Shown here one piece after another: positions 17,149-25,247 of a stretch of 64,000 bases of DNA. Origin of the DNA: Escherichia coli (GTDB lineage: Bacteria; Pseudomonadota; Gammaproteobacteria; Enterobacterales; Enterobacteriaceae); NCBI RefSeq assembly GCF_965641715.1, contig NZ_OZ282453.1, one strand, 5' to 3'. The position numbers and the translations under genes were made by a program. Every line of letters begins with the position of its first letter. Position 1 is the stretch's first letter. The notes under the pieces are model-generated. The model worked only from the letters and a program-made list of their open reading frames with translations, ran no database searches and was not told the DNA's origin.

Positions 17149-19629
17149 ATGTTGAGAATGACCCCACTTGCATCAGCAATAGTCGCGTTATTGCTCGGCA
17201 TTGAAGCACATGCAGCAGAAGAAACCTTTGACACCCATTTTATGATGGGAGGAATGAAAGGTGAGCAAGTAACAAATTTGCGTCTTGATGATAATCAGCC
17301 TTTACCTGGGCAGTACGACATTGATATTTATGTCAATAAACAATGGCGTGGAAAATATGAGATTATCGTCAAAGATAACCCACATGAAACTTGCCTGACG
17401 CGTGAAATTGTAAAGCGGTTAGGTATAAATAGCGATAATTTTGCACGCGAAAATCAGTGTTTAACATTTGAGCAACTTGTTCAGGGCGGAAGCTACTCCT
17501 GGGATATTGGGATTTTTCGTTTGGATCTCGCTGTTCCGCAAGCCTGGGTCGAAGAGCTGGAAAATGGTTACGTTCCGCCAGTAAACTGGGAGCGGGGAAT
17601 CAATGCGTTTTATACGTCTTATTACGTAAGTCAGTATTACAGTGACTATAAAGCCTCGGGCAATAGTAAGAGCACTTATGTGCGTTTTAACAGTGGGCTA
17701 AATTTGCTGGGATGGCAGCTGCATTCAGATGCCAGTTTTAGCAAAACGGATAATAATCCTGGTGAGTGGAAAAGCAACACACTGTTTCTGGAGCATGGAT
17801 TTTCTCAAATTCTCGGTGCGCTGCGTATTGGTGATATGTACACCTCATCCGATATATTTGATTCCGTTCGCTTCACCGGGGTTCGGTTATTTCGTGATAT
17901 GCAGATGTTGCCAAACTCGAAGCAAAATTTTACCCCACGGGTACAGGGGATTGCCCAGAGTAACGCGTTGGTAACTATTGAACAGAACGGTTTTGTCGTT
18001 TATCAGAAAGAGGTTCCACCAGGTCCGTTTTCGATTAGTGATTTGCAGTTAGCGGGCGGAGGGGCGGATCTTGATGTTAGTGTTAAGGAAGCCGATGGTT
18101 CTGTGACTACGTATCTGGTGCCTTATGCGGCAGTACCTAATATGCTGCAACCAGGTGTATCAAAATATGATTTTGCGGCAGGCCGTAGTCATATTGAAGG
18201 TGCGAGCAAGCAAAGTGATTTTGTCCAGGTCGGTTATCAGTATGGTTTTAATAATTTATTGACGCTGTATGGCGGCACGATGGTTGCTAATAATTACTAT
18301 GCCTTTACCCTCGGAACAGGTTGGAACACGCGTATTGGCGCAATTTCAGTCGATGCAACTAAATCGCACAGTAAGCAAGACAATGGTGATGTGTTTGACG
18401 GACAAAGTTATCAAATTGCCTATAACAAATTTTTGAGCCAAACATCAACACGTTTTGGTCTGGCGGCCTGGCGTTATTCGTCGCGTGATTACCGCACATT
18501 TAACGATTATGTGTGGGCAAATAATAAAGATAATTATCGTCGTGATAAAAACGATGTCTATGATATTGCCGATTATTACCAGAATGATTTTGGTCGCAAA
18601 AATAGCTTTTCCGCCAATATGAGTCAGTCATTGCCAGAAGGCTGGGGATCTGTGTCATTAAGTACTTTATGGCGTGATTACTGGGGGCGAAGCGGCAGTA
18701 GTAAAGATTATCAACTGAGTTATTCCAATAACTGGCGGCGGATAAGCTATACCCTCGCGGCAAGCCAGGCGTATGACGAGAACCACGCCGAAGAGAAACG
18801 CTTTAATATTTTTATATCGATTCCCTTTGACTGGGGCGATGACGTTACGACGCCGCGGCGGCAAATATATATGTCTAACTCAACGACCTTTGATGATCAG
18901 GGTTTTGCTTCAAACAATACCGGATTATCGGGAACCGTTGGGAACCGCGATCAGTTTAACTATGGTATCAACTTGAGCCATCAACATCAGGGAAATGAAA
19001 CGACAGCTGGGGCCAATTTGACCTGGACCGCACCGGCCGCAACAGTGAATGGCAGCTATAGTCAGTCGAGTACTTATCGACAGGTCGGAGCCAGTGTTTC
19101 AGGGGGACTGGTTGCCTGGTCTGGTGGCGTTAATCTGGCGAACCGTCTTTCCGAAACGTTTGCAGTGATGCATGCGCCGGGAATCAAAGATGCTTATGTC
19201 AATGGGCAAAAATATCGCACAACAAACCGTAATGGTGTGGTGGTGTACGACGGACTGACACCTTATCGGGAAAATCACCTGATGATGGATGTGTCGCAAA
19301 GCGATAGCGAAACAGAATTACGCGGGAATCGTAAAATGACCGCCCCTTATCGCGGCGCGGTCGTTCTGGTTGATTTTGATACCGATCAGCGTAAGCCCTG
19401 GTTTATAAAAGCATTAAGATCCGATGGACAGCCATTAACGTTTGGTTATGAAGTCAATGATATGCATGGTCATAACATTGGTGTTGTCGGCCAGGGCAGT
19501 CAGATATTTATTCGCACCAATGAAATACCGCCAGCGGTTAATGTGGCAATTGATAAGCAACAAGGGCTTTCATGCACAATCACCTTCGGTAAAGAGATTG
19601 ATGAAAGTAAAAATTATATCTGTCGGTGA
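17149..19629 (+). CDS. yehB: Fimbrial outer-membrane usher
   Basis: About 826 aa from MLRMTPLASAIVALLLG; usher-type; start set at an internal ATG of the track ORF. Confidence 0.85.
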   Translation: MLRMTPLASAIVALLLGIEAHAAEETFDTHFMMGGMKGEQVTNLRLDDNQPLPGQYDIDIYVNKQWRGKYEIIVKDNPHETCLTREIVKRLGINSDNFARENQCLTFEQLVQGGSYSWDIGIFRLDLAVPQAWVEELENGYVPPVNWERGINAFYTSYYVSQYYSDYKASGNSKSTYVRFNSGLNLLGWQLHSDASFSKTDNNPGEWKSNTLFLEHGFSQILGALRIGDMYTSSDIFDSVRFTGVRLFRDMQMLPNSKQNFTPRVQGIAQSNALVTIEQNGFVVYQKEVPPGPFSISDLQLAGGGADLDVSVKEADGSVTTYLVPYAAVPNMLQPGVSKYDFAAGRSHIEGASKQSDFVQVGYQYGFNNLLTLYGGTMVANNYYAFTLGTGWNTRIGAISVDATKSHSKQDNGDVFDGQSYQIAYNKFLSQTSTRFGLAAWRYSSRDYRTFNDYVWANNKDNYRRDKNDVYDIADYYQNDFGRKNSFSANMSQSLPEGWGSVSLSTLWRDYWGRSGSSKDYQLSYSNNWRRISYTLAASQAYDENHAEEKRFNIFISIPFDWGDDVTTPRRQIYMSNSTTFDDQGFASNNTGLSGTVGNRDQFNYGINLSHQHQGNETTAGANLTWTAPAATVNGSYSQSSTYRQVGASVSGGLVAWSGGVNLANRLSETFAVMHAPGIKDAYVNGQKYRTTNRNGVVVYDGLTPYRENHLMMDVSQSDSETELRGNRKMTAPYRGAVVLVDFDTDQRKPWFIKALRSDGQPLTFGYEVNDMHGHNIGVVGQGSQIFIRTNEIPPAVNVAIDKQQGLSCTITFGKEIDESKNYICR

Positions 19630-19639
19630 GAGGTGAAAT

Positions 19640-20674
19640 ATGATGTTCAGAAATGCAATATTACTAATATTTATATTGTGGGCTAATTTTACCTGGGCTG
19701 GATGTCGTACTACTGCATCATTAAATATTACTGATAGTATTAATGTTGGGGGGATTTTAGCGAATGAAACTTCCTTTAGTAAAAGTGTCGTGTTTACTGG
19801 GATATCTTGTGATACGAGCACGGATAAAATAGTTTATAAAAATATCCAAAGTGATTGGGTTGAAGTTGGGCCTTTTGGTAATGGCGAAAAATTAAAGGTT
19901 AAAATAGAGTCTTTAGGTAAAACCAGCGACACGATTGGGAAATCCAGCAATGCGCAGGCAGTATTACCCTATGTGGTTAAAATAGCCAGAGGTACACCTG
20001 ATTTTACTGGAGAAAGAAAATCTACCTGGTTTATTTCAGATACCGTGATTGCAAATATTGGCGGTGAGTCATCGTCATCCATCGACTTTTGGTTGGGTAT
20101 TTGTAAGGCATTGAAGTTTAACTGGTGTGTGAATTATCTCACCAGCAAACTGGCGGGGGATACTTTTACGCTTGGGTTAAGTATTTCCTATTATCCTAAA
20201 AATACGACCTGTAAGCCTGAAAACACAGTTATAAAAGTAGATGATATCGCCTTGTCCCAGCTCAGAAATCAGGGAAAGATTGCGGCGAACAGTAAGGAAG
20301 GAACAATTACGTTGAAATGTGATAATCTTTTCGGCGACAAAAAACAAGCATCGCGGAATATGGTTGTATATCTTTCTAGCAGTGACTTAGTTAAAGGAAG
20401 TAATACTATTTTGCGTGGTAAAACAGATAATGGTGTAGGGTTTGTGTTGGATCTAACAGAACCACCAAAAGGGACTGAGGCTGCCATTAAAATTTCGGCC
20501 AACGGCGATCAGGGCGCGGCGACATCATTATGGAAAACAGATAAACCAGGAGTTTCATTAAATAGCAACATTATTAATATACCTGTCATGGCCAGTTACT
20601 ATGTATATGATGAAAAAAAAGTTAAATCTGGCGTACTGGAGGCAACCGCATTAATCAACGTGAAATACGACTAA
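19640..20674 (+). CDS. yehA: Fimbrial adhesin-like tip protein
   Basis: 344 aa with signal peptide; last gene of the operon; AT-rich. Confidence 0.7.
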   Translation: MMFRNAILLIFILWANFTWAGCRTTASLNITDSINVGGILANETSFSKSVVFTGISCDTSTDKIVYKNIQSDWVEVGPFGNGEKLKVKIESLGKTSDTIGKSSNAQAVLPYVVKIARGTPDFTGERKSTWFISDTVIANIGGESSSSIDFWLGICKALKFNWCVNYLTSKLAGDTFTLGLSISYYPKNTTCKPENTVIKVDDIALSQLRNQGKIAANSKEGTITLKCDNLFGDKKQASRNMVVYLSSSDLVKGSNTILRGKTDNGVGFVLDLTEPPKGTEAAIKISANGDQGAATSLWKTDKPGVSLNSNIINIPVMASYYVYDEKKVKSGVLEATALINVKYD

Positions 20675-20755
20675 TAACAAGCAAGACGAGCAAGTGGCTA
20701 ATAATAAGAAATAATAAGGTGTCTGCATTTCCCCCTCTCTCCGAGGGGGCTTTTT

Positions 20756-21094
20756 TTAGCGATGATAAAAAATCTCACCGTCGTAGGCTTTAATGATTTT
20801 TCCGTCGGTATTATTGATCAGCACATATGCACCGCCCATATAGGTCCAGTGGGTTCCGGCGTCAGGTGCGGGCAGGTTACGCAACTGCCACTGCTTAATG
20901 TTGTACTCATCGGTACGGTACATCTCTGGTACGGTGTCACCTGGTTTGAAATGCTTGAAGTCAGCAATGAAGCTGCTTAACTCATACTTTGAAATTCCCG
21001 AGGCATTGGTCGAACCCGCGGTGGCTGGTGCGGCCCATGCTGCGCTGGTTACCAGCAAAAGCGCACCCAGCAACATCTTATTTTTTATGGTCAT
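20756..21094 (-). CDS. rcnB: Periplasmic nickel/cobalt homeostasis protein RcnB (YohN)
   Basis: 112 aa from MTIKNKMLLGALLLVTSAAWA (signal peptide); downstream of rcnA; track ORF is longer but the start was chosen at the signal peptide. Confidence 0.7.
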   Translation of the reverse strand: MTIKNKMLLGALLLVTSAAWAAPATAGSTNASGISKYELSSFIADFKHFKPGDTVPEMYRTDEYNIKQWQLRNLPAPDAGTHWTYMGGAYVLINNTDGKIIKAYDGEIFYHR

Positions 21095-21311
21095 ATACTC
21101 TCCACTTTGGGGATCAGTAAAATCAGTCGCATATCTTTCCCGCCATACAATATAACCGACAAGAGATATTTTGTTAGTGATCCCATGATTTCGTAAAAAG
21201 TGTAAATGAAAGGATGCAGCAAAAGCATCCTCATTGAACGAGAAGTGAACGGAATAAGCTGATTTAAGAATCATCCTGGGCTAAAGGGATAACGAAGCCC
21301 AGGTGATTGTT

Positions 21312-22163
21312 TTATCTCATAATACCCATAAAGCCATGCACTCCCATATACAACCCGACTAAACCAATCAACAGACTGGAAAAATAGGGGGCGCGTTTAG
21401 CGAGAGTGTTAAATCCGCTCCAGCGTTTTGCAACTTGTTGAACACTGATTGCCGCTCCAACGCCTACTGTAACCAGCGTTAATGCCAGGCCGATGCTGAA
21501 ACTGACGACCAGTGTTGCGCCCAGTGTCAGGGCTTTCAACTGAATGCAAATCAACAGCACGGTAATTGCTGCCGGGCAGGGAATAAGGCCACCTGTTAAG
21601 CCAAATAACAAAATTTGCCAGTTGGTGACCTCTCTACCATCAAAGCGTCGTTTAATGTCATTGGCATGGGCTCGTGCATGGGCATCCTGATACTCTTCGT
21701 TGTCGCCATGTTCATGATGGTGATGATGTTCGTGGTCGTGGTCGTGGTCGTGGTCTTGATGATCTTCGTGATCGTGGTGATGATGCTCATGATCATGCTC
21801 GTGCATATTCTCCAGCCAGTTGCGTTCGCCGCGCCAGGTACGCCAGAACATCCAGAACGCGGTGCCAATAATGATCACTGCGGAAATCAACTGGAGCCAC
21901 GGTTCTGCTGATTGAGCAGTAAAGCGCTTGCTGATCACCATCCCGCCAAAGGCAATCAACCAGACCACCGCGGTATGCGAAATGGTTGCTGCCAGTCCGA
22001 GCATCACCGCCTGTTTAGTGGTGCCTTTGATGGCGATGATAAACGCCGCCATCATCGTTTTTGAGTGCCCTGGTTCCAGGCCATGAAGCGCACCAAGTAA
22101 GATGGCGCTGGGGATGAAGAACCAGGCGTTTCCTTGCTGAAGAAGAGTTGTAAATTCGGTCAT
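21312..22163 (-). CDS. rcnA: Nickel/cobalt efflux permease RcnA
   Basis: 283 aa membrane protein with a central His/Asp/Glu-rich loop (HEHDHEHHHHDHEDHQDHDHDHDHEHHHHHEH). Confidence 0.9.
   Translation of the reverse strand: MTEFTTLLQQGNAWFFIPSAILLGALHGLEPGHSKTMMAAFIIAIKGTTKQAVMLGLAATISHTAVVWLIAFGGMVISKRFTAQSAEPWLQLISAVIIIGTAFWMFWRTWRGERNWLENMHEHDHEHHHHDHEDHQDHDHDHDHEHHHHHEHGDNEEYQDAHARAHANDIKRRFDGREVTNWQILLFGLTGGLIPCPAAITVLLICIQLKALTLGATLVVSFSIGLALTLVTVGVGAAISVQQVAKRWSGFNTLAKRAPYFSSLLIGLVGLYMGVHGFMGIMR
21732..21755. repeat. Hexanucleotide tandem repeat (GTGGTC x4 on the + strand) encoding the HD-repeat part of the RcnA His-rich loop
   Basis: Seen in sequence: cgtggtcgtggtcgtggtcgtggtc. Confidence 0.7.
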
Positions 22164-22200
22164 GATAATAATTCTTAGTATTAATTCGGCAATCTTATTC

Positions 22201-22235
22201 TACTCCCCCCCAGTACCTGATACTACCCCCCAGTA
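22201..22235. promoter_or_regulatory. Two inverted-repeat sites of the TACT-G6-N-AGTA type (RcnR operator) in the rcnA-rcnR intergenic region
   Basis: Seen: TACTCCCCCCCAGTA and TACTACCCCCCAGTA 5 bp apart; matches the published RcnR recognition motif as I recall it. Confidence 0.65.
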
Positions 22236-22283
22236 GATTAATAGTGCTATGATTTTTCATGTTCTTGTTAACCAGGTGTTGCC

Positions 22284-22556
22284 ATGTCTCATACAATCCG
22301 TGATAAACAGAAACTGAAAGCGCGTGCCAGTAAGATTCAGGGCCAGGTCGTGGCGCTCAAGAAAATGCTCGACGAGCCGCACGAATGCGCTGCAGTTTTA
22401 CAACAGATTGCTGCTATCCGTGGCGCGGTAAACGGTCTGATGCGGGAAGTGATTAAAGGTCATCTGACGGAACACATCGTTCACCAGGGGGATGAGCTAA
22501 AACGTGAAGAAGATCTGGATGTTGTTCTGAAGGTGCTGGATTCATATATCAAATAA
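22284..22556 (+). CDS. rcnR: Ni/Co-responsive transcriptional repressor RcnR (CsoR/RcnR family)
   Basis: 90 aa; divergent from rcnA; contains the H-x-C-containing helix typical of the family. Confidence 0.85.
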
Positions 22557-22644
22557 TTTATTAACGCGATTGTAAAACTGCCGTTTTTCCTCGTTTACAA
22601 CGGGTGCGCTGGACATTACCATCCTCCTCTGCGATTTATCATCG

Positions 22645-22778
22645 CAACCAAACGACTCGGGGTGCCCTTCTACGTGAAGGCTGAGAAATACCCGTATCAC
22701 CTGATCTGGATAATGCCAGCGTAGGGAAGTCACGGACCACCAGGTCATTGCTTCTTCACGTTATGGCAGGAGCAAACT
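22645..22778 (+). promoter_or_regulatory. TPP (THI-box) riboswitch leader of thiMD
   Basis: Sequence ggggtgcccttctacgtgaaggctgagaaatacccgtatcacctgatctggataatgccagcgtagggaa matches the classic thiM aptamer; lies immediately upstream of the thiM start. Confidence 0.8.
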
Positions 22779-23567
22779 ATGCAAGTCGACCTGCTGAGTT
22801 CCGCGCAATCTGCGCACGCGTTACACCTTTTTCACCAACATTCCCCTCTTGTGCATTGCATGACCAATGATGTGGTGCAAACCTTTACTGCCAATACCTT
22901 GCTGGCGCTCGGTGCATCGCCAGCGATGGTTATCGAAACCGAAGAGGCCAGTCAGTTTGCGGCTATCGCCAGTGCCTTGTTGATTAACGTTGGCACGCTG
23001 ACGCAGCCACGCGCACAGGCGATGCGTGCCGCCGTTGAGCAAGCAAAAAGCTCTCAAACCCCCTGGACGCTTGATCCAGTAGCGGTTGGTGCGCTCGATT
23101 ATCGTCGCCATTTTTGTCATGAACTTTTATCTTTTAAACCGGCAGCGATACGTGGTAATGCTTCGGAAATCATGGCATTAGCTGGCGTTGCTACTGGCGG
23201 ACGGGGAGTGGATACCACTGACGCGGCAGCTAATGCGATACCCGCTGCACAAACACTGGCACGGGAAACTGGCGCAATCTTCGTGGTCACTGGCGAGGTG
23301 GATTATGTTACCGATGGTCGTCGCACCGTTGGCATTCACGGCGGCGATCCGTTAATGGCCAAAGTGGTAGGAACTGGCTGTGCATTATCGGCAGTTGTCG
23401 CTGCCTGCTGTGCGTTACCAGGCGATATGCTGGAAAATGTCGCATCTGCCTGTCACTGGATGAAACAAGCCGGAGAACGCGCAGTCGCCAGAAGCGAGGG
23501 GCCAGGCAGTTTTGTTCCACATTTCCTTGATGCGCTCTGGCAATTGACGCAGGAGGTGCAGGCATGA
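22779..23567 (+). CDS. thiM: Hydroxyethylthiazole kinase
   Basis: 262 aa; ThiM-like sequence; overlaps the thiD start by 4 nt. Confidence 0.9.
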
Positions 23568-24364
23568 AACGAATTAACGCTCTGACGATTGCCGGTACTG
23601 ATCCGAGTGGTGGTGCGGGGATTCAGGCCGATCTTAAAACCTTCTCGGCACTTGGCGCTTATGGTTGCTCAGTTATTACTGCTCTGGTGGCGCAAAACAC
23701 CCGTGGCGTACAGTCGGTGTATCGCATTGAGCCTGATTTTGTCGCTGCCCAGCTCGATTCGGTGTTCAGCGATGTGCGAATCGACACCACTAAAATCGGT
23801 ATGTTGGCGGAAACCGATATTGTTGAAGCGGTGGCAGAACGGTTGCAACGTTATCAGATCCAAAACGTGGTACTCGACACCGTTATGCTGGCAAAAAGCG
23901 GCGACCCACTGCTTTCACCTTCGGCGGTTGCTACGCTGCGCAGTCGATTATTGCCACAGGTTTCATTAATAACGCCAAACTTGCCCGAAGCTGCTGCCTT
24001 GCTCGACGCGCCACACGCGCGCACCGAACAGGAAATGCTGGAACAAGGGCGATCGCTGTTGGCGATGGGCTGTGGCGCAGTGCTAATGAAAGGTGGTCAT
24101 CTGGATGATGAGCAAAGCCCGGACTGGCTGTTTACCCGCGAGGGTGAACAACGGTTTACCGCACCGCGCATTATGACCAAAAACACCCACGGCACTGGTT
24201 GTACACTCTCTGCGGCGTTGGCTGCACTACGCCCGCGCCATACAAACTGGGCTGACACCGTACAGGAGGCAAAAAGCTGGCTTTCATCGGCGTTAGCACA
24301 GGCCGACACGCTGGAAGTTGGTCACGGTATTGGTCCGGTTCACCACTTCCACGCCTGGTGGTGA
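23564..24364 (+). CDS. thiD: Hydroxymethylpyrimidine/phosphomethylpyrimidine kinase
   Basis: 266 aa; N-terminus [31 protein letters not shown] typical of ThiD/PdxK kinases. Confidence 0.9.
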
Positions 24365-24419
24365 GCACCGTACTATAGCTGCTTTGGTTATTGTCAGCCT
24401 TTGGCACTGACATTCAGGG

Positions 24420-25247
24420 ATGAAACCAATGCAGCTAAGCATTACCAGTCGAAAAAAACTCACCGCTCTATTATGCGCTCTTGGGCTAATTTCCATCGTT
24501 GCAATTTATCCGCGTCAGACGGTGAATTTTTTCTATTCGACAGCAGTTCAGATTACAGACTACATCCACTTCTACGGTTATCGCCCGGTTAAATCTTTCG
24601 CTATTCGCATTCCTGCCAGTTACACCATTCACGGAATAGATGTTTCGCGCTGGCAGGAGCGGATCGACTGGCAGCGGGTGGCAAAAATGCGCGACAACGG
24701 TATCCGCTTACAGTTTGCTTTTATTAAGGCGACGGAAGGCGAAAAGCTGGTGGACCCGTATTTTTCGCGTAACTGGCAACTAAGCCGCGAAAATGGCCTG
24801 CTGCGCGGGGCGTATCATTATTTCTCCCCGTCGGTAGCAGCGCCGGTTCAGGCGCGATTATTTCTGCAAACGGTGGATTTCTCACAAGGCGATTTCCCTG
24901 CCGTGCTGGACGTAGAAGAACGGGGAAAATTATCGGCAAAAGAATTACGCAAGCGGGTAAGTCAGTGGCTAAAAATGGTCGAAAAAAGTACGGGAAAAAA
25001 GCCGGTTATTTACTCAGGAGCCGTTTTTTATCACACCAATCTGGCGGGCTATTTCAATGAATATCCGTGGTGGGTGGCTCACTACTATCAACGTCGTCCG
25101 GACAATGACGGCATGGCCTGGCGCTTCTGGCAGCATTCCGACCGTGGACAGGTAGATGGCATCAATGGTCCGGTGGATTTTAATGTATTTAATGGCACGG
25201 TGGAGGAGTTGCAGGCATTCGTTGATGGGATTAAAGAAACGCCTTAA
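24420..25247 (+). CDS. yegX: Glycoside hydrolase family 25 (lysozyme-like) protein YegX
   Basis: 275-aa track ORF; N-terminal membrane anchor; GH25-like; start may be a few codons downstream. Confidence 0.7.
   Translation: MKPMQLSITSRKKLTALLCALGLISIVAIYPRQTVNFFYSTAVQITDYIHFYGYRPVKSFAIRIPASYTIHGIDVSRWQERIDWQRVAKMRDNGIRLQFAFIKATEGEKLVDPYFSRNWQLSRENGLLRGAYHYFSPSVAAPVQARLFLQTVDFSQGDFPAVLDVEERGKLSAKELRKRVSQWLKMVEKSTGKKPVIYSGAVFYHTNLAGYFNEYPWWVAHYYQRRPDNDGMAWRFWQHSDRGQVDGINGPVDFNVFNGTVEELQAFVDGIKETP

Follow-up and report, generated by a model that had tools for sequence, protein, structure and literature searches.

The variable in-frame hexanucleotide repeat in the histidine-rich loop of Escherichia coli rcnA is the typing locus VNTR-19/TR7 and a probable counterpart of Salmonella STTR5

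Variable tandem repeats with a 6-bp unit have been described in the rcnA gene of Salmonella and Klebsiella. In Salmonella enterica, the repeat STTR5 is located in YohM (= RcnA), where 8-14 copies have been reported (PMC5183578), a CACGAC VNTR has been described in yohM, and a 54-nt deletion of (HD)9 in rcnA arose in animal passage (PMC6760104). In Klebsiella pneumoniae, MLVA locus 27 is a 6-bp VNTR within rcnA, with the unit CATGGT and 0-19 copies. For E. coli, 5 alleles in 15 isolates and a diversity of 0.65 were reported at TR7 = O157-19, which has a 6-bp unit (PMC3768571), and serial passage of EDL933 yielded one single-unit insertion at TR7, again with a 6-bp unit, at a rate of 4.4e-5 per generation (PMC3777172). 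The primer pair printed under the name VNTR-19 gives amplicons of about 283-357 bp (PMC8461963). Cable bacteria, which are nickel-intensive organisms, possess an RcnA with a greatly expanded His loop. Throughout, we take VNTR-19 (PulseNet), O157-19 (Keys et al. 2005) and TR7 (Noller et al. 2003) to be names of one and the same locus. Here, we compare these systems with an rcnA allele from a non-O157 strain of E. coli.

The gene lies in the window, that is, the whole stretch of 64,000 nucleotides of E. coli DNA that was analyzed, and its surroundings show the usual gene order, with rcnR divergent from rcnA and rcnB downstream of rcnA:

21312..22163, minus strand: rcnA, nickel/cobalt efflux protein, 283 aa (ORF list and profile matches)
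22284..22556, plus strand: rcnR, Ni/Co-responsive repressor (Pfam PF02583, E 3.5e-21; RefSeq annotation of orthologous loci)
20756..21094, minus strand: rcnB, accessory subunit, 112 aa counted from an internal ATG (Pfam RcnB PF11776, E 3.3e-19; RefSeq annotation of orthologous loci)
[quoted passage not shown]

The 283-aa product matched the Pfam family NicO (PF03824; E 2.3e-70, 237.6 bits versus a cut-off of 27.7) as well as NCBIfam NF007454 (nickel/cobalt efflux transporter; 570 bits versus a cut-off of 195), the latter over positions 1-283 of 283. Judged by this full-length match to a curated profile, the ORF encodes a predicted member of the RcnA/NicO nickel-cobalt efflux family. Consistent naming is found in RefSeq, where a 98.8%-identical gene carries the name rcnA, and the exact 283-aa protein is already recorded as E. 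coli RcnA. For the RcnA of K-12, Ni/Co resistance by efflux was reportedly demonstrated by Rodrigue et al. in 2005. The rcnR-rcnA-rcnB neighborhood of the window also includes predicted RcnR operators in the divergent promoter, given that TACT-G6-N-AGTA is the RcnR operator consensus (PMC7055735). Beyond rcnR, thiM (22779..23567) is preceded by a TPP riboswitch at 22648..22744 on the plus strand (Rfam RF00059, 71.2 bits), and a 68-aa ORF that overlaps this riboswitch on the minus strand (22542..22748) is probably spurious. For the stretch at 19000..25000, which extends from the fimbrial genes yehA/yehB to thiD, a search of 5,426 complete E. coli genomes yielded top matches of just 97.2-98.6% identity. 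These 6 kb are either an unusually divergent locus or belong to a lineage that is sparsely represented in finished genomes.

The center of the RcnA product is occupied by a loop rich in His, Asp and Glu, in and around which we located the following features:

about 21678..21809, minus strand: His/Asp/Glu-rich central loop (NMH...EYQDAH), codons 119-162 (translation and codon listing)
21732..21755, minus strand: (GACCAC)x4 = (Asp-His)x4, variable core of VNTR-19/TR7 (TRF and sequence)
21696..21704, minus strand: 9-nt GACAACGAA (Asp-Asn-Glu), outside the hexamer array (pairwise alignment and allele catalogue)
21778..21800, minus strand: period-12 near-duplication CAT GAG CAT GAT / CAT GAG CAT CAT (TRF, 1.9 copies, 90%)
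21573..21601, plus strand: VNTR-19 reverse primer site GGGGCAGGGAATAAGGCCACCTGTTAAGC, 1 mismatch (primer match)
21846..21881, minus strand: VNTR-19 forward primer site GCAGTGATCATTATTAGCACCGCTTTCTGGATGTTC, 2 mismatches (primer match)

The original prediction, which had been made from the sequence, held that the His-rich loop is partly coded by (GTGGTC)x4 on the plus strand, giving HD repeats, and the interval that it named (21690..21800) indeed falls within the loop. Both the sequence and Tandem Repeats Finder agree with this description and its coordinates: a period-6 array was detected at 21730..21755 (4.3 copies, 100% matches), which reads (GTGGTC)x4 on the plus strand at 21732..21755 and (GAC CAC)x4 on the coding strand, where it encodes DHDHDHDH at codons 137-144. 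The loop is bordered by the Arg/Lys-rich segments WRTWRGER and KRRFDGR. According to the positive-inside rule, Arg/Lys-rich flanks are placed in the cytoplasm, and the loop would therefore face this compartment; a cytoplasmic location is also what the literature predicts for RcnA loops.

Inside the array, Asp is always encoded by GAC (4/4) and His always by CAC (4/4), whereas the loop outside the array favors GAT (4:1) and CAT (11:5), which argues for the copying of a DNA unit rather than for selection on the peptide. An alternative view would be that the repeat is a chance result of encoding a DH-rich peptide and that its polymorphism is an artefact of assembly or sequencing. Based on the codon counts of the loop, we estimate that some perfect codon-pair repeat over four DH units is about 10% likely, but the probability that all four units use the rare-codon pair GAC+CAC is about 1.5e-5. 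Protein composition alone does not account for the array, and the more decisive argument for this is the copy-number variation between near-identical strains that is described below.

Apart from the hexamer, a degenerate period-18 repeat spans the loop (21708..21782; 4.2 copies, 70% matches) and consists of modules that roughly read H-D-H-E-H-H. Allele comparison showed that the window allele type has the extra 12 nt of the period-12 near-duplication and that the O157:H7 type lacks them; K-12-type alleles differ among themselves in their His-codon runs. In E. coli IR53017, the 804-nt rcnA encodes a much shorter loop with a different perfect array, (CACGAG)x4 = (His-Glu)x4, which may represent a second, independent microsatellite within the rcnA loop. 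The period-18 pattern, the period-12 duplication, the His-run differences and the (HE)4 array of IR53017 together suggest that the loop has grown through repeated duplications at several scales. Three overlapping ORFs of 65-98 aa on both strands (21596..21911), which encode poly-Thr, poly-Val and Gly-Arg repeats, are alternative frames of the His-codon-rich segment, that is, low-complexity by-products and not genes.

The array is the E. coli O157:H7 MLVA typing marker VNTR-19/O157-19/TR7, which has long been in use and is already known, and this identity follows from the published primer pair, which flanks the loop in the window. Indeed, the VNTR-19 primers gave unique matches that bracket the loop, with a predicted amplicon of 309 bp (21573..21881), when no such match is expected by chance. 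Like VNTR-19, the array occupies the identical chromosomal locus, has a 6-bp unit and varies in copy number between strains. The window combines the flanking primer sites with a 6-bp tandem unit and with copy-number differences among near-identical strains; the strain itself is not of serotype O157:H7, and the locus is orthologous. A full-text search with the bare hexamer in all 12 rotations/strands returned unrelated papers only, and we did not find rcnA named as the host gene of TR7/O157-19 in the open-access papers searched (the combination yohM/O157/MLVA gave Salmonella only). The unnamed host gene of the E. coli locus is a small annotation gap and not a discovery. Outbreaks of E. coli O157:H7 are already typed with this repeat, and those of S. 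Typhimurium with the Salmonella version; what is added here is only a non-O157 strain with a short four-copy allele.

The window allele is nonetheless distinguishable from those of O157:H7. It carries four units, with 12 additional, duplicated nucleotides upstream of them, and a different left flank. Over the 690 bases compared outside the loop it differs by 8 substitutions, and its primer sites show 1-2 mismatches. Moreover, thiM and its riboswitch directly follow rcnR in the window, as they do in K-12, whereas O157:H7 has two extra genes at this position. These two small genes beyond rcnR, one annotated as hypothetical and the other as an 'outer membrane protein', were seen in O157:H7 and also in strain GDSC2227PM when the interval was compared with 22557..22778 of the window.

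The original prediction also regarded the hexanucleotide array as prone to slippage and proposed a comparison of loop length across E. coli strains. We used rcnA in a megablast search against 5,426 complete E. coli genomes and found the gene in 5,365 of them, mostly with a length of 825 nt and otherwise of 804, 822, 840, 849, 852 or 864 nt. Loop lengths were not identical across strains, which upholds the prediction on this point. A 168-nt query specific for the DH array, which has no 28-mer in common with K-12, detected the DH-array allele in 327 of the 5,426 genomes. Copy numbers were counted in 60 evenly spaced genomes out of these 327, mostly as inferred from match span and identity; in all, 15 alleles were read directly, that of the window included. 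Fifty-three of the 60 were O157-type alleles, with n=4 in 6 genomes, n=5 in 4, n=6 in 24, n=7 in 12, n=8 in 5, and n=9 and n=10 in 1 genome each. The identities of these O157-type matches were exactly those expected for pure gaps of 6-nt multiples, with zero substitutions in the 168-nt query. By direct reading, the O157:H7 strains E32511 and F7508 have 6 and 8 copies, respectively, and over 3,852 aligned bases they differ by 1 substitution and one 12-nt gap, in keeping with the predicted variability of the array. Variation was likewise observed on two other backgrounds. Among alleles with the extra 12-nt duplication, as in the window, we found n=4 in the window, GDSC2227PM and FDN-9, n=5 in Res13-PEA06-10 and n=6 in UTME-3; the third (PapRG-type) background comprised n=3 in XJ34 and n=6 in PapRG-06-5. 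Overall, arrays outside the window ranged from 3 to 10 copies among E. coli genomes.

As a control, we used a 204-nt K-12-type loop query, which contains no perfect array, on 5,363 genomes. It matched at ≥95% identity in 4,690 of them (about 87%), and the loop was exactly 204 nt long in 51 of 51 sampled rows from the two highest identity bands down to 96.6%, with a 52nd sampled row, at 95.7% identity, measuring 210 nt. Since this array-less loop had one length in all 51 of these rows, the instability tracks the perfect DNA repeat and not the loop as a protein. In strain 81EVA (NZ_CP138397.1), the K-12 loop query was matched by its second half only, and an IS3-family transposase is annotated there.

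The length of every intact rcnA allele is divisible by 3. The rcnA of FDN-9 is annotated as frameshifted, owing to a 1-nt deletion in a His-codon run upstream of, and outside, the array; this deletion may be genuine or may reflect a sequencing error. The latter possibility is the one observation that we can quote in favor of an artefact. However, copy-number variation is present in hundreds of finished genomes, and MLVA studies that sized PCR fragments observed it independently (PMC8461963, PMC3777172, PMC3768571). The PCR-based typing literature thus effectively refutes the idea of a chance repeat with artefactual polymorphism, which we consider scarcely credible.

The length difference from K-12 has a composite origin. 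The original prediction was right that the ORF has 283 aa here and about 274 aa in K-12 (K-12 rcnA being 825 nt = 274 aa long), and considered this difference consistent with a repeat length polymorphism. In a pairwise alignment, the rcnA of the window and that of K-12 are 95.5% identical, with 37 substitutions and two gaps. One gap, of 18 nt, falls in the array region and amounts to three units' worth; the other is a separate 9-nt indel. The 9-nt GACAACGAA is present in the window and in every DH-array allele and is missing from K-12-type alleles, and the K-12 loop contains no array but just one imperfect GAC CAT unit. The array thus accounts for two-thirds of the 9-aa difference, and an unrelated indel between two divergent allele families for the remaining third; the difference is not a step in copy number. 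The simple explanation that K-12 has fewer copies is ruled out by the alignment.

These features raise the question of whether recombination between divergent rcnA alleles, and not local slippage, gives rise to the length differences. In E. coli, the loops fall into several distinct allele families that differ in their flanks, and the allele of the window looks like a mosaic, in that its left side shows the unusual GAA GAT (Glu-Asp) of EC416 and its right, DNE side is of O157 type. The K-12-like rcnR-thiM arrangement despite the DH array hints at a recombinant locus, and the 9-nt indel and 37 substitutions relative to K-12 point in the same direction. Recombination can account for differences between families, including part of 283 versus 274 aa. 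Yet the n=4-10 series of O157:H7 consists of exact 6-nt multiples without substitutions in the 168-nt query, the n=6 strain is separated from the n=8 strain by just 1 substitution in 3.85 kb, and a unit change arose in pure-culture passage (PMC3777172). As a general source of the length differences, recombination is therefore very unlikely in our view.

We conclude with high confidence that rcnA contains an in-frame (GACCAC)n microsatellite in its loop, which is the VNTR-19 locus and a probable homologue of STTR5, and that slippage best explains its changes. The mechanism that we infer is slipped-strand mispairing during replication of the perfect repeat, which would add or remove whole 6-bp units. 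One unit corresponds to two codons (Asp-His), and the loop would accordingly grow or shrink by DH dipeptides with the frame kept. The allele of the window is a short one, with n=4 plus the 12-nt duplication, in a non-O157 strain. Published VNTR mutation rates rise with copy number, and the window allele may therefore mutate slowly.

Does the length of the loop matter? Our default reading is that this flexible, metal-binding loop probably tolerates the length changes, which would be near-neutral and not a regulatory device. The distribution of copy numbers in O157:H7 is unimodal around n=6, which fits drift from an ancestral value and also stabilizing selection; the latter has been argued for STTR5 (PMC5183578). 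The opposing view, which the original prediction had raised as a possibility, is adaptive tuning, whereby the metal capacity or affinity of the loop depends on how many Asp-His units it contains and slippage provides a heritable and reversible Ni/Co dial, which would make the array a graded contingency locus. Several observations can be cited for it. The loop is rich in metal-binding residues, and copy number in O157:H7 stays within its bounds of 4-10. It has been speculated that extreme STTR5 lengths weaken Ni/Co resistance (PMC5183578) and that loss of (HD)9 alters metal sensitivity (PMC6760104). The His loop of RcnA is expanded in the nickel-intensive cable bacteria, and the hexamer array recurs in RcnA/NicO homologues of distant bacteria.

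With respect to this recurrence, a scan of species' genome contigs for (GACCAC)x4 or longer returned at least 120 genomes, and in 73 of 120 among the matches listed the repeat is read as DH/HD. In at least 5 distant genomes, (GACCAC)n with 4-7 copies lies inside RcnA/NicO homologues, the hosts being Citrobacter sp. Cu233, Thiolinea disciformis, a Beijerinckiaceae MAG, Streptomyces pseudovenezuelae and one more. Such recurrence is compatible with both the near-neutral and the tuning view. Against tuning, the identity bands in which all sampled loops shared a single, array-less length contain about 87% of E. coli genomes, so that variability is no general requirement of RcnA. In addition, a bounded unimodal distribution is also expected from stepwise mutation in a young clone, and the loop may act in transport or may only chelate metal. 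No metal phenotype of any rcnA length variant was found in the literature searched, which offered speculation only. Taken together, we regard adaptive tuning as unlikely. Similarly unlikely is the proposal that the DH count quantitatively sets Ni/Co efflux or cytoplasmic buffering and that such a dial has arisen repeatedly in distant RcnA homologues. If tuning were true, a bacterial microsatellite would here adjust a protein in graded steps; and if loop length alters the phenotype, selection would act on two 'neutral' typing markers in wide use, with effects on how MLVA distances are interpreted.

With near-neutral length change as the favored reading, the array can be set beside the systems described at the outset. 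VNTR-19/TR7 is the probable counterpart of Salmonella STTR5 in the orthologous gene, with the identity of gene and unit taken from the papers. CACGAC is GACCAC rotated by 3 nt, and the two loci share a His-Asp array, changes by whole units and their use in typing. They differ in species and in copy number, which is typically higher for STTR5, and, going by the papers alone, in position, with the array at about codon 123 in Salmonella versus codons 133-137 in E. coli. The Klebsiella unit CATGGT encodes His-Gly and not the Asp-His of the window, and since the hexamers differ, the two repeats probably have independent origins. Like simple-sequence contingency loci, the array is an intragenic, perfect short tandem repeat that gains and loses units. 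ON/OFF phase variation was nevertheless rejected: as the unit comprises two codons (6 nt), the frame is always kept and no such switch results, intact alleles are all in frame, and the only frameshifted allele, that of FDN-9, owes its frameshift to the 1-nt deletion outside the array. In contrast to contingency loci, the rcnA array has a unit that is a multiple of three, the length of the protein changes in a graded manner, and expression is never switched off.
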